DNA of 64,000 bases from positions 1 through 64,000 of the IMG/VR virus record IMGVR_UViG_3300032783_000063, one strand, 5' to 3'. Source of the stretch: a virus. The translations under genes and the position numbers were made by a program. The notes beneath the pieces were generated by a model. It saw nothing but the letters and a program-made list of their open reading frames with translations. It did no database searches and was not told the DNA's origin. The first letter of the stretch is position 1, and every line of letters starts with the position of its first letter. Below are positions 929 to 30,889 of the stretch, in pieces.

Positions 929-953
929 GAGGGCGCCTCCGTCTCGAGCTGGT

Positions 954-2774: not shown

Positions 2775-2775
2775 G

Positions 2776-5760: not shown

Positions 5761-5862
5761 CGCGCCGCCCCTCCGTCTCAGAGCATTCCGGAGAGCCCGG
5801 TCGTCGCTGCGGTGGTGTATGACTGAGTGATCATCCGTTTTGCGCGCACCAGGCCCCGGCGT

Positions 5863-11801: not shown

Positions 11802-11883
11802 GGTTGATGTCCTCTCAGGATTTACGGGAACTCCAAGACCCGCGTTGTGGCCGGTCAAGGTCAGTGGTTGATGTCTGGCTGGT

Positions 11884-12543
11884 TCAGATGTCAGGCCAGC
11901 CGGGGGACAGGTCCGCGACGCGTGGTTTGCCGGTCCCGATCCACAGCTCGGCGGCGATGCGCTCTGAGTCCGGCAGCACCGATACGGGCGTGATGTCCAC
12001 TTCCGGCAGCGGCGGCAGGCCCGCGATGTAGTCGCTGCGTGCCCACCAGAAATTGCCGGAGAAATGGTCGCCGGCGTCGATGGTCATGGTGATGTGGCCG
12101 GCGGTCCGGGTCATGCCGGCGGTCAGCCAGTTGCACCCGGCCGCGTCGGCGCCCTCGCCGAGGAGGCGCACGCAGTCCCGCCACCGGCCGACCACGCGGC
12201 TGGTCATGTGCTCCCGCCGGCGCGTCCGGTACTCGTCCGGTGATGCGGCGCCTTTGGTGTGGCAGTACAGCACCGCCGCAGGCTCGGGAGCGTTTATGCA
12301 CCATTGCCGCAGCGCTTCCAGGGTGACCTGCTCGTAGCCTTCGTCCGCAGTCGCGCACCGGTCCCAGCCGGGCAGTGCCTGGCACAGCCACCCTGCGGCG
12401 TCCCGCCGGTTCTGCGGCTGGCCGACCAGGCCGACTGCGGGCATGACCGGGAACTGCGCCGCCAGCAGCGCCGCCGCATGCGCGGCAGCGGGGACCCGCC
12501 AGGTACCGTCCGCCCACAGATGGTAAAAGTGGGCGATGTTCAC
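11884..12543 (-). CDS. Putative glycosyltransferase
   Basis: YEQVTL, LYCHTKG, HFSGNFWWARSDYI, AELWIG motifs of a viral GT-like family; inside the GT cluster. Confidence 0.55.
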   Translation of the reverse strand: MNIAHFYHLWADGTWRVPAAAHAAALLAAQFPVMPAVGLVGQPQNRRDAAGWLCQALPGWDRCATADEGYEQVTLEALRQWCINAPEPAAVLYCHTKGAASPDEYRTRRREHMTSRVVGRWRDCVRLLGEGADAAGCNWLTAGMTRTAGHITMTIDAGDHFSGNFWWARSDYIAGLPPLPEVDITPVSVLPDSERIAAELWIGTGKPRVADLSPGWPDI

Positions 12544-12852
12544 TTACGGGCGCCGGCCGGGCGGACGCCCGGGAGGCGCCTTCACAGCCGGCGGCGTCAC
12601 CGCAGGCTGCGGAGCGGGCGCAGGTACAGGCGGAGGCTCCTGCCGGATCTCCGCAGCCGGCTGCACGGCAGGCCGGACTTCTGCCCGGGCCTCCGGGGCG
12701 GCCTTCACCTCAACGCCCCGGCCGGCGGCGATCAGCGACTCCGCGTGCATATCGTCGAACACGCCCACCTCGCCTGCGGGCGGGTACGTCCGCCACTGGA
12801 CCCCGTCGAAGTAGGCGCCCTCAGTGCCGACGTTCAGCCGGACAGCCTTCAA
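12544..12852 (-). CDS. Small hypothetical protein with Pro-rich tail
   Basis: TTG start coupled to the upstream TGA, GGGAG RBS; AESLIAAGRG motif common in small phage head-region proteins. Confidence 0.55.
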   Translation of the reverse strand: MKAVRLNVGTEGAYFDGVQWRTYPPAGEVGVFDDMHAESLIAAGRGVEVKAAPEARAEVRPAVQPAAEIRQEPPPVPAPAPQPAVTPPAVKAPPGRPPGRRP

Positions 12853-13142
12853 TTTGTGCTCCCATCCCAGGTGGTCAGGCCGGAGGCGACGGTGGCCAGC
12901 GCGACCGGCCGGTCTTTCACGCAGTGCAGGTGCGCCCACCTGCCGTTCATCCGCAGTCCGAGCCGCTGCCCTGGTGCCAGCGGCTCACCGCAGGAACACC
13001 GCGGCGGCTGATGCTGGGACCCGCCCGGCAGCGAGCATGCGGTGCACACCCACCGGCGGCCGCGCCGCACCACAGCATGCCCGGCCTTAACGTCATGCCC
13101 GCACCCGGCCGGCCCGGACTGGCGGGCTTCCCTGGTCGGCAT
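12849..13142 (-). CDS. Small Cys/His zinc-binding protein
   Basis: CGH, CTAC, CSC, HLHC; fits exactly between neighbours. Confidence 0.5.
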   Translation of the reverse strand: MPTREARQSGPAGCGHDVKAGHAVVRRGRRWVCTACSLPGGSQHQPPRCSCGEPLAPGQRLGLRMNGRWAHLHCVKDRPVALATVASGLTTWDGSTN

Positions 13143-14219
13143 CTACAGGAGTTCCCGGTACACGCCGGCCCACCTGTGCCAGTTCGCCTCGATCGTGTGC
13201 GCCCGGGCGACCTCACGGGCCTTCACGCTCATTTCCTCCCGCGCCGCATGGTCATTGGCGAGCTCGCGGAGCCGCCGCCCCCAGTCGCCGGGCCTGCGGA
13301 TCAGGTACCCGGTCACCCCGTCGACCATGACATCCCGGTACGCCTCGCAATCCGACGCCAGCGCCGGAATACCCAGGGCAAAATATTCCAGAAGCTTGAT
13401 GCCGGATTTGCTGGCATCGAACACTGTCCCGGTCAGCGGCGCGAGGCCGATGTCAAAGTCCAGCTGCCGGTAATACGCCAGCGACTCATCCGCCGGCACC
13501 CATTCCGTGAACCGGCACCGGCGGCCGATCTCATCGGAGAAGTCGCAGCCGACTAGATGTAGTTCAGCTTTCGGGTGGCCGTCGATGAACTCCCGCAAAG
13601 GCTCGGTGATCATCTTGATGTCCGGGCCGTGGGAGCCGCCGCCCGCCCAGCCGACCACCAGTTTCTTCCGGTGCCGGTTCCGTTCCAGGGTCAGCAGGCC
13701 GCCGGGGACGCAGTTGGGGAGGACCCGGATCTCCGGGCAGCCCAGTTTCCGGTACACCTCGGCGAGCGGTTCCGTGGATACGGTGACGATGTCGGCGATC
13801 CTGGCCGCATGGGCGACGACGTCCTGCATGACGTTCTGCCGGTAGGTGGCGAGCGTCCACCGTTCCTCCGGCACGGAGAAAATATCGTCGTCGGTTTCGT
13901 AGACGAGCCGGTGCCGCAGCCGCAGGTTCCGCCACGGTCTGAGGGCGGTCTGCTTGTCGAGCCGCTGCGCGGTGATGATCCGGTAGTCGTCGGCGGCCTG
14001 CGGCGGCACCCCCGCCCGCCATTGTGTTTTCCAGCCGTGCCTGCCGAGCTCGGCGAGGGGAACGATCACCCGGTACCAGCCGCAGCCGGACGGGCCTGAG
14101 CTGCCCGGCACCCACCGGACCGTCTCGGAGTCGATGAGCTCGCCGCTGCTGCTGCCTGCGGCCATGTAGGAGGCCACGTAGTCGTGGACGCCCCAGACGC
14201 TCCCGGCCAGGTCGCTCAC
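13143..14219 (-). CDS. Glycosyltransferase family 4 (GT-B)
   Basis: SGCGWYR, YETDDD, VGWAGGGSH, DIGLAPL, KSGIKLLEY, GVTGYL. Confidence 0.9.
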   Translation of the reverse strand: MSDLAGSVWGVHDYVASYMAAGSSSGELIDSETVRWVPGSSGPSGCGWYRVIVPLAELGRHGWKTQWRAGVPPQAADDYRIITAQRLDKQTALRPWRNLRLRHRLVYETDDDIFSVPEERWTLATYRQNVMQDVVAHAARIADIVTVSTEPLAEVYRKLGCPEIRVLPNCVPGGLLTLERNRHRKKLVVGWAGGGSHGPDIKMITEPLREFIDGHPKAELHLVGCDFSDEIGRRCRFTEWVPADESLAYYRQLDFDIGLAPLTGTVFDASKSGIKLLEYFALGIPALASDCEAYRDVMVDGVTGYLIRRPGDWGRRLRELANDHAAREEMSVKAREVARAHTIEANWHRWAGVYRELL

Positions 14220-14229
14220 GGCGGCTCCT

Positions 14230-14826
14230 TCAGGGCCAGACGTCTATGGTCTCGGCGGGGACGGCGACGAACCCGGCCCGGGCGTTCAGCCATGCGGATA
14301 CCAGTTCCCAGTCCTCCCCCGCAGACGGCGGCCCCCACGTGGCCACGTCGGCGAGGTCGGCCCAGTGGAGGATCATGGGAGTGCCGACCGTCCCGAACGC
14401 GGGCATCTCCCCTCCGATGACCGTCGCCCCGCCGTCCGGGCCGTGGCTGACCATCCTGGACACTGCGAACCGTGCTCCGGGGGCGGCCAGGAGCGCGGCA
14501 GCGAGGACCTGCAGATGGTCCGGCCGGTAGGCGTCGTCGTCGTCCAGGTAGGCGATCAGGCCGCCTTCGGCGACTTCGAGGCCGCGCCGCCGGGCCGGGC
14601 CGCCCCAGTGCTCGGTGGTGTCGTGCTCGTCCAGGCAGGTGAACGTGACCTGATGCCGGGGATTCGATGCTTCCAGGACGGCCTGGCCGAGATCCCAGTC
14701 GGGGCCGTCGGACACGATCACATGCTCCACCGATGGCCAGGTCTGCGCGGCGACCGACGGAATGCACCGTTTCAGCAGCAGGTCATGCCTGTGCCAGGTC
14801 GGCGTGATCACCGAGATCAGCGGCAT
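14230..14826 (-). CDS. Glycosyltransferase family 2 (paralog A)
   Basis: LISVITPTW..R, EHVIVSDG, IAYLDDDD, EDW. Confidence 0.9.
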   Translation of the reverse strand: MPLISVITPTWHRHDLLLKRCIPSVAAQTWPSVEHVIVSDGPDWDLGQAVLEASNPRHQVTFTCLDEHDTTEHWGGPARRRGLEVAEGGLIAYLDDDDAYRPDHLQVLAAALLAAPGARFAVSRMVSHGPDGGATVIGGEMPAFGTVGTPMILHWADLADVATWGPPSAGEDWELVSAWLNARAGFVAVPAETIDVWP

Positions 14827-15989
14827 CACAGCGGCAGCGCCCCGGCCAGCCGCTGCCTGGCGGCGAGCATGCCCTGATCCCACCGGGGTTTCGACGTGTC
14901 CAGGACCATTTCCAGGTCAGTCCTGCTGACTGTCACCCGCGCAGGCTGCATCGGCGCCGGCGTGCTGGCGGCCAGGACTTTCGCGCAGTCCCGGACCCAC
15001 GCTGCGCCGAGGACGCCGATGCGGGTATCCCGCCACGGCCCGTGTTCCAGGCTCCCGTAAACCATCCCCGCCGCGTCCAGCACCGTCTCCGCGCCGCTGA
15101 GATCGACGTCGTCGAGAGCGGCGGTGAACGGGAGTGTATCCCGCATCCCCCGTGTCTCCGCCGCCAGGTCACGGCTGAGGGTGTGCGTGTTGCGTTCCTG
15201 CCACACCAGCGGCCGACCGTACCGCACCGACCAGCCGAACTCGCGCATCACCCGCTGCGCGACATACGACGCCCAGATGTCGTCGTAGCGGCCCGCGCCG
15301 GGCAGCATCGTCATCACCGGCAGCAGATCCCGGGCGAACGCCGTGTTCTGCGAGTTGAACGGCGCGTAGGTACCCGGGGCGACAGCGAGCCCCGCCGCTG
15401 CGGCGGGGGACACGCCCGTGCACAGCGGCCGGGCGGCGATCCGGGTCACCGCGTCAATGTCCGGGTCGCCGAGCCACAGCCCGGCCGATACCCCAACCCG
15501 GATGCCGCTGCCGTAGCCCACGGCCGGCGCCCTGTCCGGATGCCATAGCTCGTGCGGGAACCCGCGGTGATGCACCGGCGGGATCAGGAAACCGCCCGGG
15601 TCTGCCCACCTGCCGCCCAGCACCAGCCCCGAGAACGACCGCGACAGGTCCTCAGCGAAATCATCGAAATACCTGCGGTCCAGCGGGATATTGTCGTCGT
15701 CGATCATGACGACGATCGAGGCGCCGTGTTTCACCGCCTCGAGCAGGCCGATGGACCTGCGGCCAGTGCACCGCCAGCCCAGCAGCTCCGAGGACTCGTA
15801 TCCGAGCTTATGCTGATCCTCGTCGCTGTAATACACCATGCTGCCGTTGCGCTCGCAGAACGCGCGGATCTCATCGTGAGGGGCCTGCTCGTCGCCGATC
15901 ACATAGAACGGGACGTCCGGGCCGATTTCCCGGTACCAGCCGAGAACTTCGGGAACCTGGATGGTGGTGGTGACCAGCGCGATGCTCAC
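14826..15989 (-). CDS. RGP/STELLO-like protein (GT75 / UDP-sugar mutase-related)
   Basis: IALVTTTI, IDDDN, HRGFP, GLWLGDPDIDA, PFNSQNTAF, GRYDDIW. Confidence 0.75.
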   Translation of the reverse strand: MSIALVTTTIQVPEVLGWYREIGPDVPFYVIGDEQAPHDEIRAFCERNGSMVYYSDEDQHKLGYESSELLGWRCTGRRSIGLLEAVKHGASIVVMIDDDNIPLDRRYFDDFAEDLSRSFSGLVLGGRWADPGGFLIPPVHHRGFPHELWHPDRAPAVGYGSGIRVGVSAGLWLGDPDIDAVTRIAARPLCTGVSPAAAAGLAVAPGTYAPFNSQNTAFARDLLPVMTMLPGAGRYDDIWASYVAQRVMREFGWSVRYGRPLVWQERNTHTLSRDLAAETRGMRDTLPFTAALDDVDLSGAETVLDAAGMVYGSLEHGPWRDTRIGVLGAAWVRDCAKVLAASTPAPMQPARVTVSRTDLEMVLDTSKPRWDQGMLAARQRLAGALPL

Positions 15990-16684
15990 CGCAGCGCCGC
16001 CAGCCGGGCGGCGTCCTCAGCCCGCCACGTGGTGTAAGGCTCACTGTAGAATTCGGCGCAGCGGATCCCGCCGCGGCCTTCCCGGTAGGTGTCGTCGCCG
16101 TTGCGGCCGGTCAGGTCGAACCGGTCCTGATACACGTAGATACCAGGCCTGGTGATCACGCCCGCGGCGAGGCCGACGTCCTGGAACCAGGTGTCCACTG
16201 CGGGAAGCGGGCACAGCCGGCCGAGCACGGCAAGGACGTCCGCGTGGACGACGGGAAAACAGGTGAGGCCGGGAATGTTGCCGTCCGTCCAGATGATCGT
16301 CCCGGCGGGCTGGGCGCGGACGATGTCGTCCCAGCCTTCTGTCTGCATGATCGCGTCGTCGTTCCATGGTGTCATGGTCCATTCGCCGTCCGCGAGCCCG
16401 AGCAGCGCAGCATGGTAGCGGGCACTTTCCGCATATCCGAACCGGTACGGGGCCTGCCAGATTGCGTCCGCAGACGCAGCAGCGGCAGCCCTGGCTGTTT
16501 CCGGGTCGTCCGGGTCGCAGGCCACCAGGATGTCCAGGAGGTCAGGGCGGGCGGCGCGGTCCCGCAGCGACGTGATTGATTCGGTGAGCATGGCGGCCCG
16601 GCGGCGGGACGGGACGGTAACTGAGATAACCCCCGGCCTGTGTTCCGCTGCTGGCCGGAGTGCCAGCGGGATCATCTCAGTCAC
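15986..16684 (-). CDS. GT-A fold glycosyltransferase
   Basis: ISVTVPSRRR, D-P-D-D, WNDD motif, GWD. Confidence 0.7.
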   Translation of the reverse strand: MTEMIPLALRPAAEHRPGVISVTVPSRRRAAMLTESITSLRDRAARPDLLDILVACDPDDPETARAAAAASADAIWQAPYRFGYAESARYHAALLGLADGEWTMTPWNDDAIMQTEGWDDIVRAQPAGTIIWTDGNIPGLTCFPVVHADVLAVLGRLCPLPAVDTWFQDVGLAAGVITRPGIYVYQDRFDLTGRNGDDTYREGRGGIRCAEFYSEPYTTWRAEDAARLAALR

Positions 16685-17450
16685 GGGGCCGGAACCATCC
16701 TGGCGGGCAGCGCCGCTCGAACACCCACTGCGGCCACGTCTCATCCACGTCCACCGGGGTCAGCCAGGGGGACGGCTGACCGTACCTCTCGCCGAAACAG
16801 TTCTGTCCCGCCCGGTACAGGTCGTTCGCGAGCGCGTTCTCGACCAGCGGGTTCCCGTCGGTATGACAGTGCGCGGCCATTTTCGTCCTGACGGCCGCCT
16901 CTCCCCCGAGCCAGGTCAGATGCTTCCCGGCCTTTGCGATCACCGACGGGCTGGCCTGCCCACGCTCCCGGGCCGTCCAGAACGATCCGATCATCCCGGC
17001 GGGGAAAACCGGGGATGTGCGCAGTGATTCCTTCCACAGCCAGTCAACGGAGAACATGCAGGTGTCCATCTCCATCACCGCCGGGCCACCTGCTGTGAGG
17101 GCGGTGATCGTGGCGGGTGACGGTATCTCGTCGGCGTCCGCGAGAATAACCAGATCATCACCGGCGGCGGCGGCCAGCCCGGCGGCTATCTGGTCTCGCT
17201 GGGCGTGTTCCCGGTCCCACGGGTTCGCGGTGTCCGGCAGATCCTCCGCCACCACATGAATGATCTTGCCGAGCCATGGGCTGAACCGGTCCTGGTTCTC
17301 CGCGAACATCAGCGGTTTCGGGTGGCCCTGATGGTCGGTGCGTGCCTCGACGAGGACATGCCGGTACACCGGCGACTCGTCGAGCTCGGTGAGACGGCAT
17401 TCGAGGATGTCCAGCTCGTCGCGGAACAGGAACGTGTCGAAGATCCTCAC
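16677..17450 (-). CDS. GT17-like (MGAT3-type GlcNAc transferase) protein
   Basis: IFDTFLFRDELDILECRL, VLVEA..H.G.PKP, W.RE..QR, ADADEIP, HLTW.GG. Confidence 0.8.
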   Translation of the reverse strand: MRIFDTFLFRDELDILECRLTELDESPVYRHVLVEARTDHQGHPKPLMFAENQDRFSPWLGKIIHVVAEDLPDTANPWDREHAQRDQIAAGLAAAAGDDLVILADADEIPSPATITALTAGGPAVMEMDTCMFSVDWLWKESLRTSPVFPAGMIGSFWTARERGQASPSVIAKAGKHLTWLGGEAAVRTKMAAHCHTDGNPLVENALANDLYRAGQNCFGERYGQPSPWLTPVDVDETWPQWVFERRCPPGWFRPRD

Positions 17451-18130
17451 CGGGGCAGGCTGTCCCGGAGCCGGGCCAGGTCTGCGGGCCACCGCTGGCA
17501 CAGGAACTCGTCATAGGTTCTGCGGTCAGTCCCGGCGGCTTCGAGGGCCAGCATCCGCGCATACCCGTCATCCGCTGCGGCTTTCCCCGCTGACGGATGC
17601 AGGTGCTCGATGAGCACGTCCGGGCGGTACTGCAGGTTCCCGATGTCAGTCCCCAGTTGTTTCCAGAAGGCGTCGACATACAGGTGGGTCAGTCCCGGCG
17701 GGCACATGTAGCCGAGCCTGCGGACCAGCGCGGCAGACATGACCACAGCGGTCGGGAGTTCCTCCCCCCGCAGGCCGTCGTCGCCGTAGGCAACCCCCGG
17801 CCGGGTGATGAGCGCGTCCGTCAAGGTCTTGTCCCATCCGGGCGTGCGGGGCCGGTGGTCGTCGCCGAGGAACCCGACCGCCGGGAACACGGCGGCAAGG
17901 CCAGGGGCGACCATGTTGAGGACCGGCCCCGGCCCGCGCGGCCCGCTGATGACCGCTACCTGTGCCATCTGCCACCGGGACAGCCGGGCATAGCCGTCTG
18001 CGTGCGGGTCGTCAGCGTCGGCGACTACCAGGAGCATGGCGGCGGCTGTGACCTGCGGCCACAGCCTGATGAGCTCGGCGGCGCTGTGCGGCCTGCCGCG
18101 TGATGGGCAGATCATCACCAGTTGGGTCAA
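17447..18130 (-). CDS. GT-A fold glycosyltransferase
   Basis: PSRGRP, FLGDDH, GWD, HLYVD, IEHLHP. Confidence 0.75.
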   Translation of the reverse strand: MTQLVMICPSRGRPHSAAELIRLWPQVTAAAMLLVVADADDPHADGYARLSRWQMAQVAVISGPRGPGPVLNMVAPGLAAVFPAVGFLGDDHRPRTPGWDKTLTDALITRPGVAYGDDGLRGEELPTAVVMSAALVRRLGYMCPPGLTHLYVDAFWKQLGTDIGNLQYRPDVLIEHLHPSAGKAAADDGYARMLALEAAGTDRRTYDEFLCQRWPADLARLRDSLPR

Positions 18131-18819
18131 GGCTTGACTCCGGTGAACATGCCCCGGTCTCCGGGGTGCCCGGAGTAGGCGTAGGAGCCCGTGGTGATGT
18201 CATCAAGGTAGTCGAACTGCCGGAAGACCAGCGGGAACCCGGCGCATCGGATCGCATCGCACAGGTCTGGGATAGCCAGCCAGAACGATCGCTGGTTCCC
18301 CCATGATCCCCACCGGCTGTCTGCGGCCGGATCGTCCTGATACCAGTGTCCGCGGCGGCCCTCGTTCTCCGTGCCGGGGCGGTCGGAGTAGTGGGTCTGG
18401 AGGATCAGCAGCCTGCGGGTGATCTTGCCGAGCATGTTCAGGAACGCTACCGGCCCGTCCAGGTGGTAGAGGAGGCCGCAGCAGAACACGGCGTCGAATC
18501 CGCCGTGCCGGTGCAGGTTCCGGGCGTCGTCCCGGACGAACCGCAGGTTCGGCAGATCCAGCGCTTCGGCGATCCGCTGGCAGTTGGCCATGTTGACGGC
18601 CCGGACCTCGACGCCGACTACGTCGTATCCGGCGCGGGCGAACTCGGCCGCATAGCCGCCTTCGAGGCAGCCGACGTCGGCGATCCTGCCGCCGCCGGGG
18701 AGCGCCAGTTTCAGGTCCCGCAGAGCGGCCTGGCAGATTCCCGTGTCTGCGGTCAGCGGCACGCCCGGAAGCGTCTCCGACCCGTCCGGCAGCCGGATGT
18801 TGTGCGCGGTGAATGCCAT
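18127..18819 (-). CDS. Class I SAM-dependent methyltransferase
   Basis: IADVGCLEGGY, FDAVFCCGLLYHL. Confidence 0.9.
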   Translation of the reverse strand: MAFTAHNIRLPDGSETLPGVPLTADTGICQAALRDLKLALPGGGRIADVGCLEGGYAAEFARAGYDVVGVEVRAVNMANCQRIAEALDLPNLRFVRDDARNLHRHGGFDAVFCCGLLYHLDGPVAFLNMLGKITRRLLILQTHYSDRPGTENEGRRGHWYQDDPAADSRWGSWGNQRSFWLAIPDLCDAIRCAGFPLVFRQFDYLDDITTGSYAYSGHPGDRGMFTGVKP

Positions 18820-19478
18820 CAGAAACGTACTTCGCGGGTTATAGGTGGCGATGGGTATTTACAGTCTCGGTAGTAGTAATCTGCGGTAATTTGCGGGTCG
18901 CATGCCCATGTCACCCCGGCTTTCATCCAGCGCTCTACCAGATCCCAGTCATCGGCAGGCACCCCTGTCTGCCACGTCGCTACGTCCAGGATTTCGCGGC
19001 GGTGCAGGATCGCGGACGTGTCGATCCCCCCGAACATCGGCGGATCGGAGCCGACGATCACTGACCGGTGCGCGTGATGCATCTCGATCCGCGAATACGC
19101 GAACCCGGCTTCCGGGTGGTCCCGCAGTAGCCTGGCGAGGCGGTGCAGGTGAGCGGGCCGGAACGTATTGTCGTCGTCCAGCCACGCAACTAAGCTGCCC
19201 GTGGCGAGCTGGACGCCGCGGAGCTTGGCCCGGTACCCCCAGCGGATGGCCGGGTCATGGCTGGCGAGCTCGCCGAGGACCAGGGACACCCTGCGGCCGG
19301 GCCGCCCGGATCTGATCATCGCGGCGGCGAGGCCCGGGTCGGGGCCGTCGGACACGATCACATGCTCGATCTCGCCGGGATAGGTCTGGTTCCGGACCGA
19401 TGGCATGCACGTGGTAGTCAGTTCCGCGTGCCTCTGCCACGTCGGCGTGATCACCGAGATGAGAGGCCAGCCGCCCAT
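18819..19478 (-). CDS. Glycosyltransferase family 2 (paralog B)
   Basis: LISVITPTWQRH, EHVIVSDG, AWLDDDN, DDW. Confidence 0.9.
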   Translation of the reverse strand: MGGWPLISVITPTWQRHAELTTTCMPSVRNQTYPGEIEHVIVSDGPDPGLAAAMIRSGRPGRRVSLVLGELASHDPAIRWGYRAKLRGVQLATGSLVAWLDDDNTFRPAHLHRLARLLRDHPEAGFAYSRIEMHHAHRSVIVGSDPPMFGGIDTSAILHRREILDVATWQTGVPADDWDLVERWMKAGVTWACDPQITADYYYRDCKYPSPPITREVRF

Positions 19479-19789
19479 CAGGCGGGGCTGCTGTCGAAAA
19501 TGTATGCGGCGGCCGGGTGTGCCTTGCAGTCTTCGCACCACGGCGTGGCGGCGGCCGGGACTGGTCTGCGGCCACGGTGATCCTCGGCGGGGTGGCACGG
19601 GTTGAGCCGGTGCTCAGGGTGGATCTCCGTAGTCATATGGGAGTGCCAGACGACGGCCCCGGCGTGGTGCAGCACATCACCGGTAACAGGATTGATGACA
19701 GGCTCGGTGGTGATGCAGTCAATCACTTGACAGTTGTCGTGGCCATGACGGCAGGGACCGCCAGGCTGGATGCGCTGGATGAAGGCCAT
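19478..19789 (-). CDS. His/Cys-rich small hypothetical protein
   Basis: ATG coupled to upstream TGA; fills the gap in the operon; MAFIQRIQPGGPCRHGHDNC...WCEDC. Confidence 0.55.
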   Translation of the reverse strand: MAFIQRIQPGGPCRHGHDNCQVIDCITTEPVINPVTGDVLHHAGAVVWHSHMTTEIHPEHRLNPCHPAEDHRGRRPVPAAATPWCEDCKAHPAAAYIFDSSPA

Positions 19790-22700
19790 CAGGTGATCCC
19801 GTACATGACTGCCTGGCAGTAAGCACCTGTCGATACCAGCGCCGGGGGGCTGAGCAGAGGATGACCTCCGGTGGTTACCGTCAGACCGCCCGTGGCGTAT
19901 GTGACCGGGCTGGAGATTGTGTAACTGGTGTTGGCGACGGCATTGGTGATGGTGGTCCTGGGCGGGATGACCTGGACGCCGACGAGAAGGGTGTCGGTGC
20001 CGGCGCTGTTCCCGGCCGGGTTCTGGGAGAGCGTGTAGCCGGTGCCTGCCTGGACGGCGATGATGATGGTCCCTGCCGTGATGTTCCCGGGCGTGGTGGC
20101 ATCGGTGACGACCGCGCCGACGTCGGCGGCAACGGCGGATGGAACCCCGGTTACCGTGGCAGTGCTCGTGCTGAACGTGCATGCGGGGCAGCTGCGGGCC
20201 GGGTTGGGGCCGCATGGACCAATCAGCAGGTTCTGGGCAGCGCTGGCCTGGCCGGTGGCCTGCGCAGGGGAGGTCGTGAAGGTAGACGGCGACCCGGGAG
20301 TGACAGTATCTATCACTGTGCCCGGGGTGAAATTCGCCGGGGTTGTCTTGTTGAAGACTGTCGCGCCGACGTCAGTTGCCAGAACGGCAGCGTCGGTTAT
20401 CGCGCCGGTGGATGGTACGGTGCAACTGGTGTCACTGCGGGCTGTCGCGGCGATGATGCCCCGTCCGATATTGGCAACTGCCGCGCTGGGACACAGGATG
20501 ATGTTCTGGCTGGGCGACGCCTGGGCCGTGCAGCCGAGGCTGCCGGATCCGTTAGCGCACCAGACGAGCCCGGTCATGATGTTGTTCCCGCCAGAGAACG
20601 CGGAGACGGAAATAGTCTGGTTGTCGAATGATATGGCCAGCCAGTCGGCCAGCTGCGGTATGCAGCTCGCCCCGAGAGGTATTACCGGCTGACCCGCTGC
20701 CGGGCACGGTATATTACCGCTGGTCGCGTTGAGGTACATGCCGCCGTTCGGCTTGGCGTTCAGACCTGACCCGCTGTTCTTGTAATAGGCAACAGAGATA
20801 TTCCCGTAGGAAACGGCCACTGACTCGATGACGATATTAGCGGAACTGTACCCGGCTGACTTGAGCCGCGTGTAGGCCGCCGCCATGAAGCTGATAGGCG
20901 ACGCGGAAGTCCAGGACATGACTGAGCTGAAATTAGAATTGAACCCGTTCTGCAGCGGGTCGTTGGCGCTGGCGTAGCCGCTGGACGGGCCGACCTGAGC
21001 CCATGCGGATGTGCCACCGCCCGTCCCGGCCGTGGTGCAGATCCAGATGAGCCCGGTCTGGTCAATGACGAAATCGCCGGCCAGGTACGTTCCCGACCGG
21101 GGGGCGCCGCCCGCCGTCGCTCCCGCATACCGGCTGGCTGCGGTAGCCCCCGGCAGCCCTGCCGGAGCGTAGTCAGGGAGACTCTGGCCTGCCTGCGCCC
21201 AGGTGGCAAGAGTTCCGGTCCCGCCCGTGGTGCAGATCCAGATGAACCCGGTCTGGTCAATGACGAAATCGCCGGCCAGGTAGGTTCCCGACGTCGGCTT
21301 GCCGCTGACAGTCGCGCCGACAAAGCGGCTCCCGGCACCGGCCCCCGTTATCATGCTCCCGCCGCTGGCCGCGACAAGGCCAGCGGCAGCGAACGCCTGC
21401 GCGCTTGCGACCTCCTGGAAATTAGGCCCGGTTCCGCAGTTGATGATGGTGGTCTGCTGCAGCGGCACGTTGAGCAGCGGCTGCAGCCCCCAGTTGCCGA
21501 CCGTGTCGAGCAGCAGGCCCGTGGTACTGCTGTCTGCGTAGACGTGGAAGTAGACGCCGGCGCCGAGATTGTGCGTAAGCTGACCGGATTGCCGGACTAT
21601 TATGTTGCGGCAGGGAGTGCCAGCTGTACTTTTGGTGAACTGGAATGCGTTTCCCGTCCACGAGCTGGCGTCCCAGCCGCGGACGTGCTCTATGGTAACA
21701 CTGAATCCGGCTGCTATGTTGATCAGCCCTGCGGGGGCCAGCTCAACGACGATGTTCCGGAATAGCATATCCTGTGCGTATCCGGCTGCATTCTGCATGT
21801 CAAAGTTAAAGAATGGCACAAAGTTATTGTTGCCAAAATATCCGGTGTCCAGATCTTGCCAGGAGCAGGATGTGACGCCTACCTGCAGTGAGTTCCAGGC
21901 GGAATTAGTGGCCAGCGCGGAGCCGTAAATACGGCATTCGCCGTACACCACGAGATCAATAGCGGTGCCGCCGAATTCCGACCAGACGCTGTGTGCCGGA
22001 TTATCCTGCTGAGCCTGGACGCCGCAGATGCGGAACTTGGACAGCCCGACGTTGCCGCCCAGGGTGAAGGTGGCAGTGCCTGCGGCGCTGTCGGTGGCAG
22101 GCTTGCTCAGCACGTATCCGGGGCCGGCGTCTCCGGGTGTTATGTAAGAAGAGATAACCGTGGACGCCTGTATGTTAGTTCCGCTGATCGGGGCGCCGAC
22201 GTCGGTGGAGACCGCCGACGGGTCATATACAGTGGCTGAGCCGTTACTGGTCGTGCAGCCGGTATCGGCGCGCCGTGTGATATCCCATACGTGACCGGTA
22301 ACCGGTGCGATCGTGACTGATCCGCCGTTGATGCTGCCGGCTCCGGTGATGCTGAGCATGGGGGCCTGCCCTGGCGCAGGCGCATATGCCTGATTGTTGA
22401 AAAGCACCAGGTAAGCAGTCCCGGCCGGGACGGGAAACGTGTACGGGCCGCCGGCCACTCCCGTCAGCGTGGCAGTGCCTGTTGCTGTCGTCGGAGACGG
22501 GTAGCCGACAGATGCGGTGAAGGAAACACTTGCGCTTGACGCCGCCTGCGCAGACGACAGGGATACTGTTCCGGTGCCTGACGGCGAGACGGCCCCCGTA
22601 ACACCCTTCCCCGAAGCATACAGGAAACAATGCTCAAAAGTAATGTCGTGAGTGTTCTTGTACATGGTGAAGAGACTCGACACGGAATTTATGATCGAGC

Positions 22701-23355
22701 CGCCGGCGCCGCTGCTGCTGTTCGGCCCGTCGATGTTCGAGCCGCGGACATGCATGCCGCTGTACATGGAGATCGGAGTCGACGTCCTGAAGCCTCTGTT
22801 GCCGAGATCCACGATGCCGGACGCAGCCTGTGCGGCGGCGAAGCACGCGTGGACAGGAACGTCGTCATCAGTAACGCCGTCGCCGGCGGCACCGAACGAC
22901 ATCGGGCTGAAGATGCCCTGGGTGGCGTTGACGGCAAGCGGAACACCGGTGAACGCCCCGGCGGAAACGACCTGGCGGACGGTGAACCCTGCGGCGTGAG
23001 CGACAGGAACAGACGCCAAAGCGCCGCGGATCACCGTCCACGTCACGCCGGATACGTCCGTGACCGCAACCATCTCGGAAGACAGCACCGGATCCCCGGC
23101 ATAGAACGGGTTCCCTGCAGACGGGACCGGGAACCCGTCCGACGATGCGACAGTCCACGTCTCGGTGCTGCCTGGCGCAGGCGCGCCGGTGCCTCCGGCG
23201 GTCACCGTGGTCGTGGCGAGCAGATTCCCGGCGGTGATCTTCTTGGTGGTCCCGGACCCGGCCATGGAGAAGTCGCTGGTGTCGACCACCGGGAACAGGT
23301 CACCGGGCTGCAGGCTGGACCCGGCCAGCGCCCCGTATTCGCTGATCTTGCCCAT
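19789..23355 (-). CDS. Multidomain fibre/spike protein with beta-helix
   Basis: N-terminal GKISEY..DLFPVVD module; FGAAGDGVTDD beta-helix cap; internal duplicated modules. Confidence 0.75.
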   Translation of the reverse strand: MGKISEYGALAGSSLQPGDLFPVVDTSDFSMAGSGTTKKITAGNLLATTTVTAGGTGAPAPGSTETWTVASSDGFPVPSAGNPFYAGDPVLSSEMVAVTDVSGVTWTVIRGALASVPVAHAAGFTVRQVVSAGAFTGVPLAVNATQGIFSPMSFGAAGDGVTDDDVPVHACFAAAQAASGIVDLGNRGFRTSTPISMYSGMHVRGSNIDGPNSSSGAGGSIINSVSSLFTMYKNTHDITFEHCFLYASGKGVTGAVSPSGTGTVSLSSAQAASSASVSFTASVGYPSPTTATGTATLTGVAGGPYTFPVPAGTAYLVLFNNQAYAPAPGQAPMLSITGAGSINGGSVTIAPVTGHVWDITRRADTGCTTSNGSATVYDPSAVSTDVGAPISGTNIQASTVISSYITPGDAGPGYVLSKPATDSAAGTATFTLGGNVGLSKFRICGVQAQQDNPAHSVWSEFGGTAIDLVVYGECRIYGSALATNSAWNSLQVGVTSCSWQDLDTGYFGNNNFVPFFNFDMQNAAGYAQDMLFRNIVVELAPAGLINIAAGFSVTIEHVRGWDASSWTGNAFQFTKSTAGTPCRNIIVRQSGQLTHNLGAGVYFHVYADSSTTGLLLDTVGNWGLQPLLNVPLQQTTIINCGTGPNFQEVASAQAFAAAGLVAASGGSMITGAGAGSRFVGATVSGKPTSGTYLAGDFVIDQTGFIWICTTGGTGTLATWAQAGQSLPDYAPAGLPGATAASRYAGATAGGAPRSGTYLAGDFVIDQTGLIWICTTAGTGGGTSAWAQVGPSSGYASANDPLQNGFNSNFSSVMSWTSASPISFMAAAYTRLKSAGYSSANIVIESVAVSYGNISVAYYKNSGSGLNAKPNGGMYLNATSGNIPCPAAGQPVIPLGASCIPQLADWLAISFDNQTISVSAFSGGNNIMTGLVWCANGSGSLGCTAQASPSQNIILCPSAAVANIGRGIIAATARSDTSCTVPSTGAITDAAVLATDVGATVFNKTTPANFTPGTVIDTVTPGSPSTFTTSPAQATGQASAAQNLLIGPCGPNPARSCPACTFSTSTATVTGVPSAVAADVGAVVTDATTPGNITAGTIIIAVQAGTGYTLSQNPAGNSAGTDTLLVGVQVIPPRTTITNAVANTSYTISSPVTYATGGLTVTTGGHPLLSPPALVSTGAYCQAVMYGIT
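21030..21292. repeat. Intragenic near-identical 68-bp duplication, 195 bp apart
   Basis: 21030-21097 and 21225-21292 both encode SGTYLAGDFVIDQTG(F/L)IWICTT. Confidence 0.9.
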
Positions 23356-23364
23356 CGTGGTCTC

Positions 23365-23928
23365 CTAACGCCCTGCTGCCGCCCTGGCAGCGGCAGCGGC
23401 GTAGATCCCCATGCTGCCGATAATCTTGTCCGGCTCGCCAAGGATCTCGTCCAGCGCCGGGGCAACCTCACGGCAGCAACAGCGTTCCTCCCTGTCGTGA
23501 CAGGCCAGGGTGCCGCCTGCGGCGAGGAGCGGCAGGGCAAGGTTCACGTCAGCCCCGACCTGCGTCCCGGCGTGGTCGCCGTCGATGAAGATAAACCCGA
23601 ACCGGGTCCCGGCTGCAGCCATCCCCGGTAGAACATCCTGGCTGGCATGGCGGAGGATGGTCACCTTACCTGCCGCCCCGGCGAGGAGCAGGTTAGCGGT
23701 CATCACCGGCAGCGAGTCCAGCCAATCATGCGGATCCACTGCGGTGACCGACCGGGCACCCCCGAGAGCCATCACGATCGCCGAGTACCCGAACGCTGAG
23801 CCGATCTCCAGGACATCCTGGTCTTTCGCCATCCGGGCAAGCGCGGCGGCTTCTTCCGGGAGGACCGAGGTCGGGATGGTCTGCGGATGCAGGCCGCCGA
23901 CCGGCTGTTCCTGCCACGCCAGATGCAT
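23365..23928 (-). CDS. SAM-dependent methyltransferase (Methyltransf_24-like)
   Basis: VLEIGSAFGYS, FIFIDGDH, CHD. Confidence 0.9.
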   Translation of the reverse strand: MHLAWQEQPVGGLHPQTIPTSVLPEEAAALARMAKDQDVLEIGSAFGYSAIVMALGGARSVTAVDPHDWLDSLPVMTANLLLAGAAGKVTILRHASQDVLPGMAAAGTRFGFIFIDGDHAGTQVGADVNLALPLLAAGGTLACHDREERCCCREVAPALDEILGEPDKIIGSMGIYAAAAARAAAGR

Positions 23929-23930
23929 GC

Positions 23931-24293
23931 TTACCCGGCGGCGGGGGTTTTCGTCCAGGTGAACCGGGACGGCCCCGAACTCCCCGCACCCGGGTTCCCG
24001 GCGCCCTGCAGGCCGCCGGGCTGAATGCCCTGCGTCCACCCGCCCGAGGGCGCGGCGGGCCCGGCGGCGGGGCTCTTGCCGCCGTCTTTCCCTATCAGGG
24101 TGGACACCGGCGCCGGGGCGCCTGGCGGCAGGACCGGCAGCGGCAAGACCTCCGGGCCCGCGCCAGGATCACCCGGCGACGGGCTCGAGATCGGCACCGA
24201 CCCGGACCCGGACTGGCCGAGATCGCCGTGGACCTCGCCGCCCGCGCTCATCGAGGACGGGACCAGCGGCGGGGCGGTCAGGTGCTGCACCAT
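23931..24293 (-). CDS. Pro/Gly-rich small protein
   Basis: Tightly packed ORF after capsid gene. Confidence 0.55.
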   Translation of the reverse strand: MVQHLTAPPLVPSSMSAGGEVHGDLGQSGSGSVPISSPSPGDPGAGPEVLPLPVLPPGAPAPVSTLIGKDGGKSPAAGPAAPSGGWTQGIQPGGLQGAGNPGAGSSGPSRFTWTKTPAAG

Positions 24294-24499
24294 CAGGTCT
24301 GCCTGAACGGGCCGGAGTCGCCGTCAAGATACGGATAGTCCGCAGTCTTCATGAACCCGGCGTTGTTGGTGCCGCCAGGGTCGGTCGGCTGCGGCCGGTC
24401 CACGTCCTGCGCGCCGCCGTAGTTCACCGGATCGCTGCGGTCCGGCATGCCGGCCACCGCGCCCTGCCGGACACCGGAACCGCCGGGAAACGTAGCCAT
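24293..24499 (-). CDS. Small hypothetical protein
   Basis: Coupled ORF, 68 aa. Confidence 0.55.
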   Translation of the reverse strand: MATFPGGSGVRQGAVAGMPDRSDPVNYGGAQDVDRPQPTDPGGTNNAGFMKTADYPYLDGDSGPFRQT

Positions 24500-25024
24500 C
24501 TACCGCTGTCCTTTCTTCCAGCCGCCGACCATGATGTTCCCCTGCCCCGCCCCGTCAGAAGTGGGGTAGAACCCGCCCTCGACGAGGGGCCGCGCCGGCG
24601 GGTACGTCCCCGCCGGGGCGGTCGAGTCCGGGCCGACCACCGCGGACACGACATAGTTGCCGGTGCCGCCGCCGGGCTTGCCGTACACGGCGTTCGGGTC
24701 GGTGACCTGGATGGTCATGCCGGGCTGCTGGATCTGCCCGGCCGGCGCCCCGCCGGACCCGGGCGCGCCCGTGCCGCCCAGCGGCGTCCCGGCCAGCGTG
24801 TCATTAGCCGGGTAAATTCCCGGCGGAGCCGTCGGGTCAGACGCCTCCCCGGCGACTGACGGCGAACCGCCCGCGCCAGTCGAGTAGGAAAGCGGGATGC
24901 CGAACGCCGACGCCGGGTCCTGGCCGGGCGCCAGCGTCGAGTCATTCGGGTTCGCGGGGACACCTGGCGCGGGGGCGAAGCCGTCCCCGGATTCGTCCGG
25001 GCCCCTGTACTTCAGGTCAGCCAT
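24500..25024 (-). CDS. Pro/Gly/Thr-rich protein
   Basis: GAGGAG RBS; low-complexity, likely disordered. Confidence 0.6.
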   Translation of the reverse strand: MADLKYRGPDESGDGFAPAPGVPANPNDSTLAPGQDPASAFGIPLSYSTGAGGSPSVAGEASDPTAPPGIYPANDTLAGTPLGGTGAPGSGGAPAGQIQQPGMTIQVTDPNAVYGKPGGGTGNYVVSAVVGPDSTAPAGTYPPARPLVEGGFYPTSDGAGQGNIMVGGWKKGQR

Positions 25025-25055
25025 CACAGCTCCTCGCTGCCGGTTTCCGTTGGAC

Positions 25056-25095
25056 CGCGCCGGGCCGGGCGTTCACAGTCGCCCGGCCCGGCGCG
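25056..25095 (-). terminator. Perfect 16-bp hairpin downstream of the major capsid gene
   Basis: CGCGCCGGGCCGGGCG-N8-CGCCCGGCCCGGCGCG. Confidence 0.7.
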
Positions 25096-25148
25096 CACCT
25101 TGACTGCAGGTGGCGGCAGCCAAGGAAGATACAGGCGTACAGGAAGGA

Positions 25149-26420
25149 TCAGGTACTTCCTCCCACGTAGTACTTCATGCAGTTGCCGGTCCGATCGACC
25201 AGGGTGCCGTCGCCCCTGATCACGGCCCGGAACGTCACCAGGTCAGTGTTGAACTGGTAATCATCGGACCGCTCGAACCGGACTGGGCCGACCAGCCGCA
25301 CGAAGAACTGGGCGAAGTCGCCGAACACCACCGACTTCGCTGACGTCGCCACCGCCGGCATGAACGGGTCCGCGACCAGCGGCTTGCCCAGCAGCAGGTC
25401 CGGGGACCCGAGGACCACCGACGGCTCCCAGATCGGCCGCAGGTTCGCGTCGAGCAGCAGCCGGAACCCGGCGATCGTCTTGTCCGCCGCCAGCCAGTAG
25501 CAGCTGCGGGACTGACGGTAAGGAGCGATAACGCTGTACTCCAGGTTCACCAGGTCCGAGTACTGCGGGGCGCCGGTCTTGCCGGTTGTGGTGCCGAGGA
25601 CACCCTGGCCTGCGTTCTTGAGCAGCCCGTCCGGCTTGGTGGTGCCCGTGCCGGTGATCAGGTCCGAGCCGAAAGCGTTCCCGATCGCCCGCCCCGACGA
25701 CATGGCCAGGTAGCCGACCAGGTCAACACCCGAGTCGTCGAGAAGCTCGCGGGCCACGGACAGGAGCACGCCGTACTTGTAGGCGCCGAGCGTGACGACG
25801 TCGAACTGCGGGTCAACCTCGTTGATGGAGCCGATCTGCCCAGTCAGCGCCGCCGTGGTGTGCGACGTGGTGCGGGGCACGGTCAGGTTCTCACCGCCGG
25901 CAGTGTTCAGGATCGTCGGCCCGGCCTGCAGCAGCCCCGACACCTCGATCAGGTGGCTTATGAGCTGGTCGTAGAAGTCCGTCGGGGTCAGCGCCCCGCC
26001 GGACGCAGCCGAGTAGGTCATCAGGGCCCGGTAGTTCACCGGCCCCCGGGCCGGGTCGTGGCGCAGTTCCAGCACCCGCGGCGATCCGGCGTCGCCGCGG
26101 AACCAGGCCCGGATCTCGCCGTCCGACCCGCCGCCGGGACTGGTTTCCGGCTGCCGCCACGCCGACTGCCGTTTCTTGTCGACGTCCTTGCCGACAATCG
26201 AGTTGAACGCCGCATCCGCGTCCTTCGACCGCTTCTCCGCCTCGAGGACGGCCTTGATGCGCTTGTCCAGGTTGTCGAGTTCCTCGTTCGCCGCGTCCCA
26301 GGAACCCTGCTCCTCGGCGGTCAGCGCCCGGTTCTCTTCCGTTGCCCGGTCGGCGATGGCTTTTGCCTGCTCCCAGACGTTCAGCCTGCGGTCACGCAGG
26401 GTCTTGGCCACTTCGGACAT
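25149..26420 (-). CDS. Major capsid protein, HK97 family, with N-terminal delta domain
   Basis: Coiled-coil N-terminus, GGALTP, ELLDDS, LLGKP, FGDF, R.DG. Confidence 0.95.
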   Translation of the reverse strand: MSEVAKTLRDRRLNVWEQAKAIADRATEENRALTAEEQGSWDAANEELDNLDKRIKAVLEAEKRSKDADAAFNSIVGKDVDKKRQSAWRQPETSPGGGSDGEIRAWFRGDAGSPRVLELRHDPARGPVNYRALMTYSAASGGALTPTDFYDQLISHLIEVSGLLQAGPTILNTAGGENLTVPRTTSHTTAALTGQIGSINEVDPQFDVVTLGAYKYGVLLSVARELLDDSGVDLVGYLAMSSGRAIGNAFGSDLITGTGTTKPDGLLKNAGQGVLGTTTGKTGAPQYSDLVNLEYSVIAPYRQSRSCYWLAADKTIAGFRLLLDANLRPIWEPSVVLGSPDLLLGKPLVADPFMPAVATSAKSVVFGDFAQFFVRLVGPVRFERSDDYQFNTDLVTFRAVIRGDGTLVDRTGNCMKYYVGGST

Positions 26421-26604
26421 GTGACAGTTCTCCGTTTCAGTAGCGAGGTGTCCGAAACGGCGATCCAGCGCGGCCCTGTGTTGTGTCCCGGTGCCTGCCT
26501 CGCGGCCGGGAGTCCGTGCCAGTGATGCGTCCGTGTCACGCCTGTCCAGGTGGTGTCGAGCCGGCCTGGAGGCGCCGTGCGCGGGGTTGTGCTTGTTCTT
26601 CCGC

Positions 26605-27255
26605 TTACATGCGGGAAGCTGCGTGCGGTACAGGACGGTGCGGCGGGAAGCACGCCGGCGTGCCCGTCAGCGGCACCGACGGGTAGTAGTCACAGGTCAC
26701 CGCGTCCACCGACGCGCACGTGATGCCGGCGTCCAGCCACCGGGAAACCAGATCCCAGTCATCGGCGCGGATCAGGCTCCGCCACGACGCCACGTCGAGG
26801 AGCTCACGGCGGTGCAGCAGCATGCACGACAGCACGCGGCCGTGCGCCAGCGGCCCGTCGCCGATCCGCAGCACGCTGTCCCCGGCGCACTTGATGACTG
26901 CCCGCGAGTACGCGAACCCCGCAGCCGGGTCAGACTCCAGAGCATCAGCCAGCAGCCGGAGATGGTCCGGCCGGTAGGCGTCGTCGTCGTCCAGGTAGGC
27001 GATCAGATTCCCGCGGGCGAGAGTGAGAGCGTGGTTGCGGGCATCCGCCCCGCCCGGCCCCGTAGTGACCGTCTCGCCGTACACGACCGGCAGCCCGGCG
27101 ACCAGGGCCTGCAGTTCCGGGTCCGGGTCGGAGACGACAACATGCTCAACGTCGGGATACGTCTGCGCCCGCACCGACGGGACACAGCGGCCCAGCAGCA
27201 GGTCGTGCCTGTGCCAGGTGGGCGTGATGACGGAGATCAGCCCTCGTCGGCCCAC
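26605..27255 (-). CDS. Glycosyltransferase family 2 (paralog C)
   Basis: LISVITPTWHRHDLLL, IAYLDDDDAYRPDHL. Confidence 0.85.
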   Translation of the reverse strand: MGRRGLISVITPTWHRHDLLLGRCVPSVRAQTYPDVEHVVVSDPDPELQALVAGLPVVYGETVTTGPGGADARNHALTLARGNLIAYLDDDDAYRPDHLRLLADALESDPAAGFAYSRAVIKCAGDSVLRIGDGPLAHGRVLSCMLLHRRELLDVASWRSLIRADDWDLVSRWLDAGITCASVDAVTCDYYPSVPLTGTPACFPPHRPVPHAASRM

Positions 27256-30818: not shown

Positions 30819-30889
30819 AGCGCCCCCTCCGGCGTGTCGCATGCCTGTTTGCGGTGTACCGACAGCCATCACGGTGTACGGTGGCAGAC

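Follow-up and report, generated by a model that had tools for sequence, protein, structure and literature searches.

Why does the head operon of a phage carry a large set of glycan-building enzymes, and what do these enzymes modify? The locus that raises this question belongs to the IMG/VR virus record IMGVR_UViG_3300032783_000063, a 101,305-bp genome with direct terminal repeats that is rated 100% complete. The stretch analysed here (the window) comprises 64,000 nucleotides (nt), bases 1-64000 of the record. Its minus strand carries, between the protease and capsid genes and the head-tail adaptor gene, an island of nine genes with a glycosyltransferase (GT) fold, a GT75 protein included, and two S-adenosylmethionine (SAM)-dependent methyltransferases. 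An initial annotation had proposed nine GT-like genes and two SAM methyltransferases in this arrangement, interleaved with fibre genes. All eleven genes are present, as identified by Pfam and PHROG matches and by predicted folds, and the arrangement is confirmed. The enzyme cluster is real and far above chance expectation. Throughout the 101-kb genome, all matches to GT2 and to PF13578 fall within it. From upstream to downstream the eleven genes are:

26605..27255, minus strand: GT2a, GT-A enzyme of family 2 (Pfam Glycos_transf_2, 3e-18), between the protease and capsid genes, with a 19-nt overlap with the protease gene
23365..24039, minus strand: SAM methyltransferase of the Methyltransf_24 family (PF13578; Pfam 2.1e-16), hereafter MT24; likely start 23928
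18819..19598, minus strand: GT2b (Pfam Glycos_transf_2, 3.9e-11); likely start 19478
18127..18819, minus strand: class I SAM methyltransferase, Methyltransf_25/11 (Pfam 1.6e-11; NCBIfam TIGR04290, 6e-13), hereafter MT25
17447..18130, minus strand: probable GT-A glycosyltransferase of phrog_14945 (PHROG "glycosyltransferase", 9.5e-41; no Pfam match)
16677..17501, minus strand: GT17-like glycosyltransferase (Pfam Glyco_transf_17, 2.2e-26); likely start 17450
15986..16744, minus strand: GT-A-fold glycosyltransferase of 252 amino acids (aa), of no Pfam family, identified with AlphaFold2 (AF2) and Foldseek; likely start 16675
14826..15989, minus strand: GT75/RGP-like protein, probable nucleoside diphosphate (NDP)-sugar pyranose-to-furanose mutase (Pfam RGP, 1.3e-10; match to MtdL)
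14230..14883, minus strand: GT2c (Pfam Glycos_transf_2, 1.3e-13), with a 1-nt overlap with the GT75 stop codon; likely start 14826
13143..14219, minus strand: GT-B glycosyltransferase of the GT1/GT4 type (Pfam Glyco_trans_1_4, 4.9e-10; phrog_7162, 2.1e-45)
11884..12543, minus strand: DUF8361 protein of GT-A-like fold with "HTKG" and GNFWW motifs (predicted local distance difference test score, pLDDT, of 94.8 in AF2; no match in the local Pfam search)

Gene starts were refined from alignments with homologs, and frames were judged by GC content at third codon positions (GC3). The open reading frame (ORF) 14216-14767 was rejected as a wrong frame (GC3 0.54) and 14230-14883 is preferred.

We propose that the phage-encoded enzymes decorate the phage's own virion proteins, by a late-expressed, cytoplasmic protein glycosylation. 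We give this reading, which we draw from sequence comparison, a probability of about 0.6. Virion-directed glycosylation is the best-supported explanation because of the operon structure and because similar genes recur, in plastic combinations, within the virion modules of many phages.

Placement in the late operon and in related phages

The late operon is a single long minus-strand unit that starts with the portal gene (30872) and, according to GC3-based gene calling, reaches as far as base 11. At the opposite end of the record it resumes with tail genes, among them a 1151-aa ORF of tape-measure size. GC3 frame analysis and start/stop junctions show a contiguous minus-strand gene array in the following order: portal with intein, protease, GT2a, capsid, three small Pro/Gly/Ser/Thr-rich proteins, MT24, a 1188-aa fibre-like protein, a 103-aa ORF, GT2b, MT25, the phrog_14945 GT-A, GT17, the 252-aa GT-A, GT75, GT2c, GT4, two small ORFs, DUF8361, a 253-aa Thr/Gly-rich protein, proteins of 1125, 598, 994 (pectate-lyase-like) and 606 aa, and the head-tail adaptor. 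From 25027 to 11884, 17 genes stand in a row with gaps of 10 nt or less, or with overlaps (TGATG, GTGA). Promoter-like and terminator-like sequences within the island occur at or below the counts expected from shuffled sequences. An apparent gap of 310 nt after the 1188-aa gene exhibits no structure (z 0.39) and is filled by the coupled 103-aa ORF. No hydrophobic stretch of the kind that spans a membrane is found in any of the enzymes, and the island contains no membrane protein. Among the genes searched for in the genome, none of lipid-carrier, flippase or sugar-nucleotide synthesis type was found.

The phage is uncultured and infects soil actinobacteria; its DNA has a GC content of about 67%. 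The capsid relatives at about 50% identity are prophages of three Streptomyces genomes, Terrabacter, Haloechinothrix and one Acidimicrobiia metagenome-assembled genome, and this points to an actinobacterial host. A megablast search with the island returned no cultured close relative, and the top capsid match in 50,697 phage records is only 33% identical. A capsid protein search of IMG/VR yielded relatives on at least 234 contigs. The best 80 of these 234 (61-74% identical) were kept, and islands were scored in the 33 relatives with at least 8 kb of sequence downstream of the capsid gene.

In 32 of these 33 relatives, the part of the virion module that follows the capsid gene contains GT or methyltransferase homologs, in 11 combinations. 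The phrog_14945 gene is the commonest (26/33), followed by GT2 (25/33) and GT4 (15/33). GT17 is found in one of 79 relatives and GT75 in none. Insertion sites in the clade vary, always within the virion module: between terminase and portal (L050, L052), between protease and capsid (here, L059, L060), between capsid and adaptor (most relatives) and between adaptor and tail tube (L001, L014). In L034, the closest relative for which there is context, the island is shorter and consists of capsid, small proteins, MT24, GT2 and GT4. By this comparison, the present genome looks like an L034-like backbone to which about 20 kb coding for further enzymes and fibres has been added.

A similar enzyme set is also found outside the clade. 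In L021, whose terminase is T4-type, whose portal is SPP1-type and whose capsid belongs to another family, the order is capsid-GT4-epimerase-GT75-MT24-GT17; in L007, with unrelated or distant head genes, it is capsid-GT4-GT17-tandem MT24-adaptor. These recurrences suggest that the set travels as a cassette and lands repeatedly beside capsid genes.

Two further features of the relatives deserve mention. L001 encodes a B12-binding radical-SAM enzyme (L001:5792-7129) between the phrog_14945 GT and the GT17 gene, directly upstream of the gene homologous to that of the putative major tail protein (genome 96361-97110); this enzyme may act on the glycan, as a radical methyltransferase. In L014 and L016, the homolog of a 214-aa protein (genome 99892-100536) is duplicated and flanks the homolog of the same putative major tail protein.

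The island is bordered by the following genes:

34719-36314: large terminase (phrog_9), upstream of the portal gene
28233..30872, minus strand: portal protein interrupted by an intein (Hint and LAGLIDADG; Pfam Phage_portal, 1.1e-52, LAGLIDADG_3, Intein_splicing), marking the upstream limit of the head module
27237..28214, minus strand: prohead serine protease of type S78 (Pfam Peptidase_S78, 2.4e-26)
11..1012, minus strand: gp6-like head-tail adaptor (Pfam Phage_connect_1; phrog_442, 5e-23), downstream boundary of the island

The portal intein with its LAGLIDADG homing-endonuclease domain spans residues 284 to 660 approximately. Portal matches in the relatives come in separate pieces, and absence of the intein there may be the cause.

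Properties of the enzymes

Catalytic motifs are kept: every GT-A member has a DxD or a G-D-D motif, and GC3 is high in all enzyme frames. GT2a, GT2b and GT2c are paralogs with 43-51% identity (48-51% between GT2a and the other two; blastp all-against-all). The GT17-like protein scores 93.2 bits against PF04724 (cut-off 26), its residues 16-215 aligning to profile positions 71-274 of 348; it has no match in the 50,697 phage records. The G-D-D motif of the phrog_14945 protein is invariant, and its profile match to the GT-A enzyme AvpGT is marginal (PDB, E 0.06). The 252-aa protein was modelled on 25 homologs (AF2 pLDDT 90.7). The model exhibits a GT2-like GT-A fold with Foldseek probability 1.0 to SpsA, TarS, TarP, PcManGT and ppGalNAcT. 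Residues D77, D79-D80 and D129-D130 are invariant and provide an acidic motif of the DxD type. Some homologs of this protein are fused to PF13578.

The PF13578 family of the MT24 gene is also that of the O-methyltransferase parts of Che8 gp108 and Corndog gp35, from mycobacteriophages discussed below. The same family appears in phrog_2675, labelled "DNA methyltransferase". In this PHROG, positions 1-220 align with the phrog_14945 GT-A protein of the island (17447-18130) and positions 307-461 with the PF13578 methyltransferase. Given these two alignments, phrog_2675 looks like a fusion of a GT and a sugar O-methyltransferase of the Che8 gp108 type, and its annotation is probably wrong.

The GT75 protein had been listed as an RGP/STELLO-like transferase. 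The family assignment is correct (PF03214, 41.5 bits, cut-off 23.8), whereas the role is probably that of a donor-making mutase, as a remark on a possible mutase in the initial annotation had foreseen. The protein matches the solved MtdL structures 7XPR and 7YUA (phmmer 3.3e-27). MtdL converts GDP-L-fucopyranose or GDP-L-galactopyranose to the furanose form (PMC9937993). MtdL and Hyg20 are GT75 enzymes of antibiotic pathways (PMC9937993; PDB 7XPR, 7YUA), whereas the present gene lies in a phage head operon and not in an antibiotic gene cluster. We took the key residues of MtdL and their roles from PMC9937993 and mapped them on an alignment of the query with 12 viral homologs. Thirteen of the 16 key residues are retained in the GT75 protein, and across the 12 homologs too. 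The conserved equivalents include the DDDN (DxD) motif, the catalytic, autoglycosylated Arg159, Asp195, Ser228-Gln229, Arg257, Asp260, Arg289 and His292; of these, Asp195, Gln229, Arg257 and Asp260 bind the sugar and phosphate. Of two Mn2+-coordinating residues that MtdL requires for activity, His287 has become Gln and Asp87 has become Thr; all 13 sequences carry Gln and Thr/Ile at these positions. Active plant UDP-arabinopyranose mutases have Ser at the Asp87 position (PMC9937993), so that only the His-to-Gln change is unprecedented. Since both changes are found in all 12 viral homologs, these proteins constitute a conserved, divergent viral GT75 subfamily. The GT75 protein is most likely a mutase supplying a furanosyl donor, with some doubt arising from the His-to-Gln change, and the island probably comprises eight transferases and one donor-making enzyme.

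Apart from the possible mutase, the initial annotation had seen no gene for nucleotide-sugar synthesis, and had proposed the use of host donors. This holds for the present genome: members of the NTP_transferase (PF00483) and NAD-epimerase (PF01370) families are absent from all of it, so the remaining donors would come from the host. It does not extend to the clade, where some relatives have dehydratase, epimerase and nucleotidyltransferase genes within their islands. The islands of L017 and L019 encode two epimerases resembling GDP-mannose dehydratase, a fusion of NTP-transferase and kinase, a HAD hydrolase and a methyltransferase. The sugar-nucleotide genes lie at L017:3330-9309 and 15915-16931, and at L019:9162-12266.

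For the last enzyme of the island, initially called an HTKG-type GT, a GT-A-like fold is predicted. The protein atlas identifies it as DUF8361 (PF27674), with labelled clusters scoring 0.97-0.98 (TM 0.85). A model based on 50 homologs has a GT-A/nucleotide-diphospho-sugar-transferase fold, with Z of about 12 to mannosylglycerate synthase, hyaluronan synthase and WrtF (Foldseek, VIA), and of about 11 to GlmU; GT-A transferases and sugar nucleotidyltransferases are equally close. The family has 1595 representatives at E≤0.001, almost entirely viral, and we know of no characterised member. Its invariant residues are Tyr-x-His-x-Lys inside the YxHTKG motif, together with the GNFWW motif. Longer members are fused to GT2/GT92, GT4 or PF13578, and in giant viruses (Nucleocytoviricota) to GT17. 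In view of these fusions we predict that DUF8361 is a glycan-related family, of putative transferases or nucleotidyltransferases.

Possible targets of the proposed glycosylation

The genes interleaved with the enzymes or following them, which include the possible acceptors, are:

25149..26420, minus strand: HK97-type major capsid protein with N-terminal delta domain (Pfam Phage_capsid, 1.2e-53; C-terminus ...VGGST)
23931..25027, minus strand: three small Pro/Gly/Ser/Thr-rich proteins (175, 68 and 120 aa), probably disordered from their composition
19789..23355, minus strand: 1188-aa fibre-like protein with an N-terminal module of about 46 aa (blastp all-against-all)
19478..19789, minus strand: previously unlisted 103-aa Cys/His-rich ORF, with TGATG overlaps with the 1188-aa fibre gene and GT2b
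12544..13142, minus strand: two small ORFs, 97 aa (Cys-rich) and 131 aa (Pro/Ala-rich), both with homologs in L034 (tblastn)
11097..11858, minus strand: 253-aa Thr/Gly-rich virion-type protein (phrog_23653, 3.1e-17; C-terminus ...GSGTLGTT)
954..11033, minus strand: four large fibre/appendage-type proteins of 1125, 598, 994 and 606 aa (tail-fibre and pre-neck appendage PHROGs)

The three small proteins are candidate decoration proteins or acceptors, and their homologs follow the capsid gene in the closest relatives (L033-L036). For the 253-aa protein, the protein atlas matches viral clusters only, and leads to tail fibres are weak. The 994-aa fibre protein exhibits a pectate-lyase-like beta-helix (Pfam Pect-lyase_RHGA_epim, 1.6e-18). 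Four fibre-like proteins (1188, 994, 598 and 689 aa) have in common the N-terminal module of about 46 aa, with 46-67% identity, which suggests a common docking site. One protein bearing the module lies beyond the adaptor, among head-tail joining genes (genome 97884-99953, minus strand). The 103-aa ORF has no homolog in any relative locus examined and is unrelated to the 97-aa Cys-rich ORF (12849-13142).

If the enzymes do glycosylate the virion, they would be made late in infection, while capsids and fibres assemble. The soluble GT-A enzymes (three GT2, the GT17-like, two unnamed GT-A and DUF8361) and the GT-B enzyme GT4 would add sugars stepwise, from host NDP-sugars, to Ser/Thr of virion proteins that are exposed. 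The capsid C-terminus (...GGST), the small Pro/Gly/Ser/Thr-rich proteins, the 253-aa protein (...LGTT) and the fibres are candidate acceptors. The GT75 enzyme would turn an NDP-pyranose into a furanose donor, and the PF13578 and Methyltransf_25 enzymes would O-methylate the sugars. With seven or more different transferases, the product would be a long or branched glycan, or separate glycans on separate proteins. Which proteins are the acceptors, and the structure, branching and capping of the glycan, we only infer. The island would then be a plastic "glycotype" locus that differs among related phages.

The initial annotation had envisaged such a glycan coat on the virion. It is still the best explanation of the position of the genes, their tight coupling, their conserved placement and the shared PF13578 family, while a sequon or tag signal did not emerge. 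Indeed, several observations weigh against it. The C-terminal residue is Thr or Ser in 64 of 79 capsids of the clade (81%), and 5 of 6 capsids of prophage relatives that have no island (a compact capsid-to-tail region) also end in Ser/Thr. We therefore reject this terminal residue as a glycosylation tag; being common to the island-less prophages, it is a lineage trait and no evidence of glycosylation. The sequons [ST]G[ST], [ST][ST], [ST]P and [ST]x[ST] are not consistently enriched over shuffled sequences in all late proteins. Ser/Thr ends are found in 8 of about 27 virion-type proteins versus none of 11 enzymes, a marginal difference only. Homologs of the phrog_14945 GT in Stanwilliamsviridae, which are large Streptomyces phages, sit among DNA-replication genes. 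In L020, a viral contig of 54% GC, a GT75 homolog lies between a SNF2 helicase and a C5 cytosine methylase (L020:1262-11000), and given this non-virion setting the viral GT75 subfamily may not be confined to one role. Finally, blastp found no match (E <0.005) to Che8 gp108-110 or Corndog gp35-38, the enzymes of known virion glycosylation systems, and GT25 (PF01755), the family of Che8 gp110 and Corndog gp38, is absent from the genome.

A bolder form of the proposal can be advanced only tentatively, and we rate it below even odds. It holds that a large clade of uncultured actinobacterial siphophages possesses, in the virion operon, a hypervariable "glycotype" locus similar to bacterial O-antigen loci, which on its own builds complex glycans, O-methylated and furanose-containing, on capsids, decoration proteins or fibres. 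With its eight transferases and divergent GT75 mutase, and with DUF8361 acting as a new kind of protein glycosyltransferase, the present genome would be the clade's most elaborate example. If so, particles would have strain-specific sugar coats of a complexity comparable to that of giant viruses.

The enzymes might instead remodel the host envelope late in infection, by glycosylating or methylating wall glycopolymers or their cytoplasmic precursors. Progeny would then not adsorb to debris, other phages would be excluded, or release would be easier. Soluble GT2/GT4 enzymes of wall-polymer pathways likewise have no membrane segments, the pectate-lyase-like domain among the fibre genes suggests glycan receptors, and there are weak NCBIfam matches to TuaG, WcaA, EpsD and PglI-type enzymes. 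These scores are, however, all far under the cut-off, the island has no membrane protein, and in many relatives the enzyme genes show coupling to those for capsid and fibres. Known serotype-converting GT operons are expressed in the lysogen and lie near integration modules. We consider this explanation unlikely.

It is also rather improbable that the island is an accretion of mobile "moron" genes, its size due to a permissive insertion hotspot, with no concerted pathway and with some GTs redundant, inactive or acting on unrelated substrates. Its content does differ greatly among relatives, the three GT2 paralogs are as far apart as they are from GT2s of other phages, and the GT75 protein lacks two MtdL key residues. 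But the conserved catalytic motifs, including the 13 GT75 residues kept across 12 homologs, the uniformly high GC3 and the tight translational coupling argue against this, and GT75, MT24, GT17 and GT4 occur together again in an unrelated phage.

Less probable again are free or lipid-bound glycoconjugates as products, for instance a methylated oligosaccharide or a small molecule carrying sugars, in place of protein-linked glycans. GT2 and the methyltransferases weakly match, at the family level, the mycofactocin glycosyltransferase MftF and the oligosaccharide methyltransferase MftM, and the antibiotic pathways of MtdL and Hyg20 (PMC9937993) offer a precedent. Yet those matches are far under the cut-off, no aglycone-synthesis gene is found in the island, and the placement in virion modules across many phages would be left unexplained.

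Glycosylation of phage DNA as an anti-restriction hypermodification, to which the replication-side homologs of phrog_14945, the neighbours of GT75 in L020 and the label of phrog_2675 could point, is highly improbable: the genes are embedded in the head operon, a PF00303 search of the genome found no hydroxymethylase of the thymidylate synthase family, phrog_2675 resembles a Che8-type fusion, and nine transferase-fold genes with sugar-type O-methyltransferases far exceed the needs of any DNA glycosylation known to us.

Comparison with known systems

To our knowledge, the only phages with demonstrated phage-encoded virion glycosylation are a few mycobacteriophages, which use two to four enzymes for it. 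A 2023 study by Freeman et al. in Cell Host Microbe, cited in PMC12363180, PMC11600133 and PMC12582341, reportedly describes O-glycosylation of mycobacteriophage virions. According to two papers that cite it, capsid and tail-tube proteins of Che8, Corndog and Myrna are glycosylated by phage GTs (PMC12363180, PMC11600133), and one of them calls Che8 gp110 and Corndog gp38 essential for capsid glycosylation (PMC12363180). Corndog carries a row of methyltransferase-GT-GT-GT between its portal and capsid genes; the three GTs of Che8 are found at the right end of its genome. By family, Che8 gp108 is GT2 plus PF13578/TylF, gp109 GT2-like and gp110 GT25, while Corndog gp35 is PF13578/TylF, gp37 GT2-like and gp38 GT25. 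O-linked glycans at the C-termini of capsid and tail-tube subunits are taken to characterise the Che8/Corndog type.

The likeness to these systems consists in soluble phage GTs and an O-methyltransferase in or near the virion structural operon, in the common GT2 and PF13578/TylF families, and in a host of the phylum Actinomycetota. Capsids also have tails of small residues with a terminal hydroxyl residue (Che8 ...TGS, Corndog ...VGS, here ...GGST); the proteins of capsid and tail tube in Che8 and Corndog end in Gly/Asp-Ser. The differences are marked. Che8 and Corndog have two to three GTs, with or without one methyltransferase, whereas nine GT-fold genes and two methyltransferases are present here, with GT17, GT75, GT4 and DUF8361 in addition, in an island with interleaved fibre genes that varies strongly across a large uncultured clade. 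A DUF8361 hidden Markov model did not match Che8 gp110 significantly. The island would thus work like the Che8/Corndog system without being a member of it by descent.

Among Streptomyces phages, Stanwilliamsviridae (for example Teutsch gp34-36, MeganTheeKilla gp76-78) have a GT pair with a nucleotidyltransferase, and their phrog_14945 GT is 35-40% identical to the present one. Their genes are placed among replication and nucleotide-metabolism genes, next to the nucleotidyltransferase, whereas those described here are in a head operon.

The chlorovirus PBCV-1 (A064R, A111/114R) uses cytoplasmic virus-encoded GTs and a sugar O-methyltransferase to build a complex, methyl-capped capsid glycan (PMC7826918, PMC9614988). 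This glycan is attached to the major capsid protein, includes a furanose (arabinofuranose, Araf) and is made independently of the host glycosylation machinery (PMC7826918, PMC9614988). PBCV-1 is a giant virus of eukaryotes whose enzymes are multidomain and whose glycans are N-linked, whereas the present genes are single-domain and belong to a tailed phage. If the island works as proposed, a phage would make particle glycans as complex as those of chloroviruses, and the trait would be near-universal and fast-evolving in a widespread lineage of soil actinophages. It would involve enzyme families (GT17-like, GT75-like, DUF8361) that have no known characterised phage members, and would give DUF8361, with more than 1,500 representative sequences, its first functional context. 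It would bear on phage-host recognition, on particle stability in soil and possibly on masking of capsid proteins, and would be a source of new soluble protein-glycosylating enzymes and of a furanose-donor mutase. The island most likely represents a much larger form of phage virion glycosylation than the mycobacteriophage systems of two to four enzymes. Its complexity, with methyltransferases and a furanose donor, appears nearer to the chlorovirus capsid-glycan machinery (PMC7826918) than to Che8 and Corndog.

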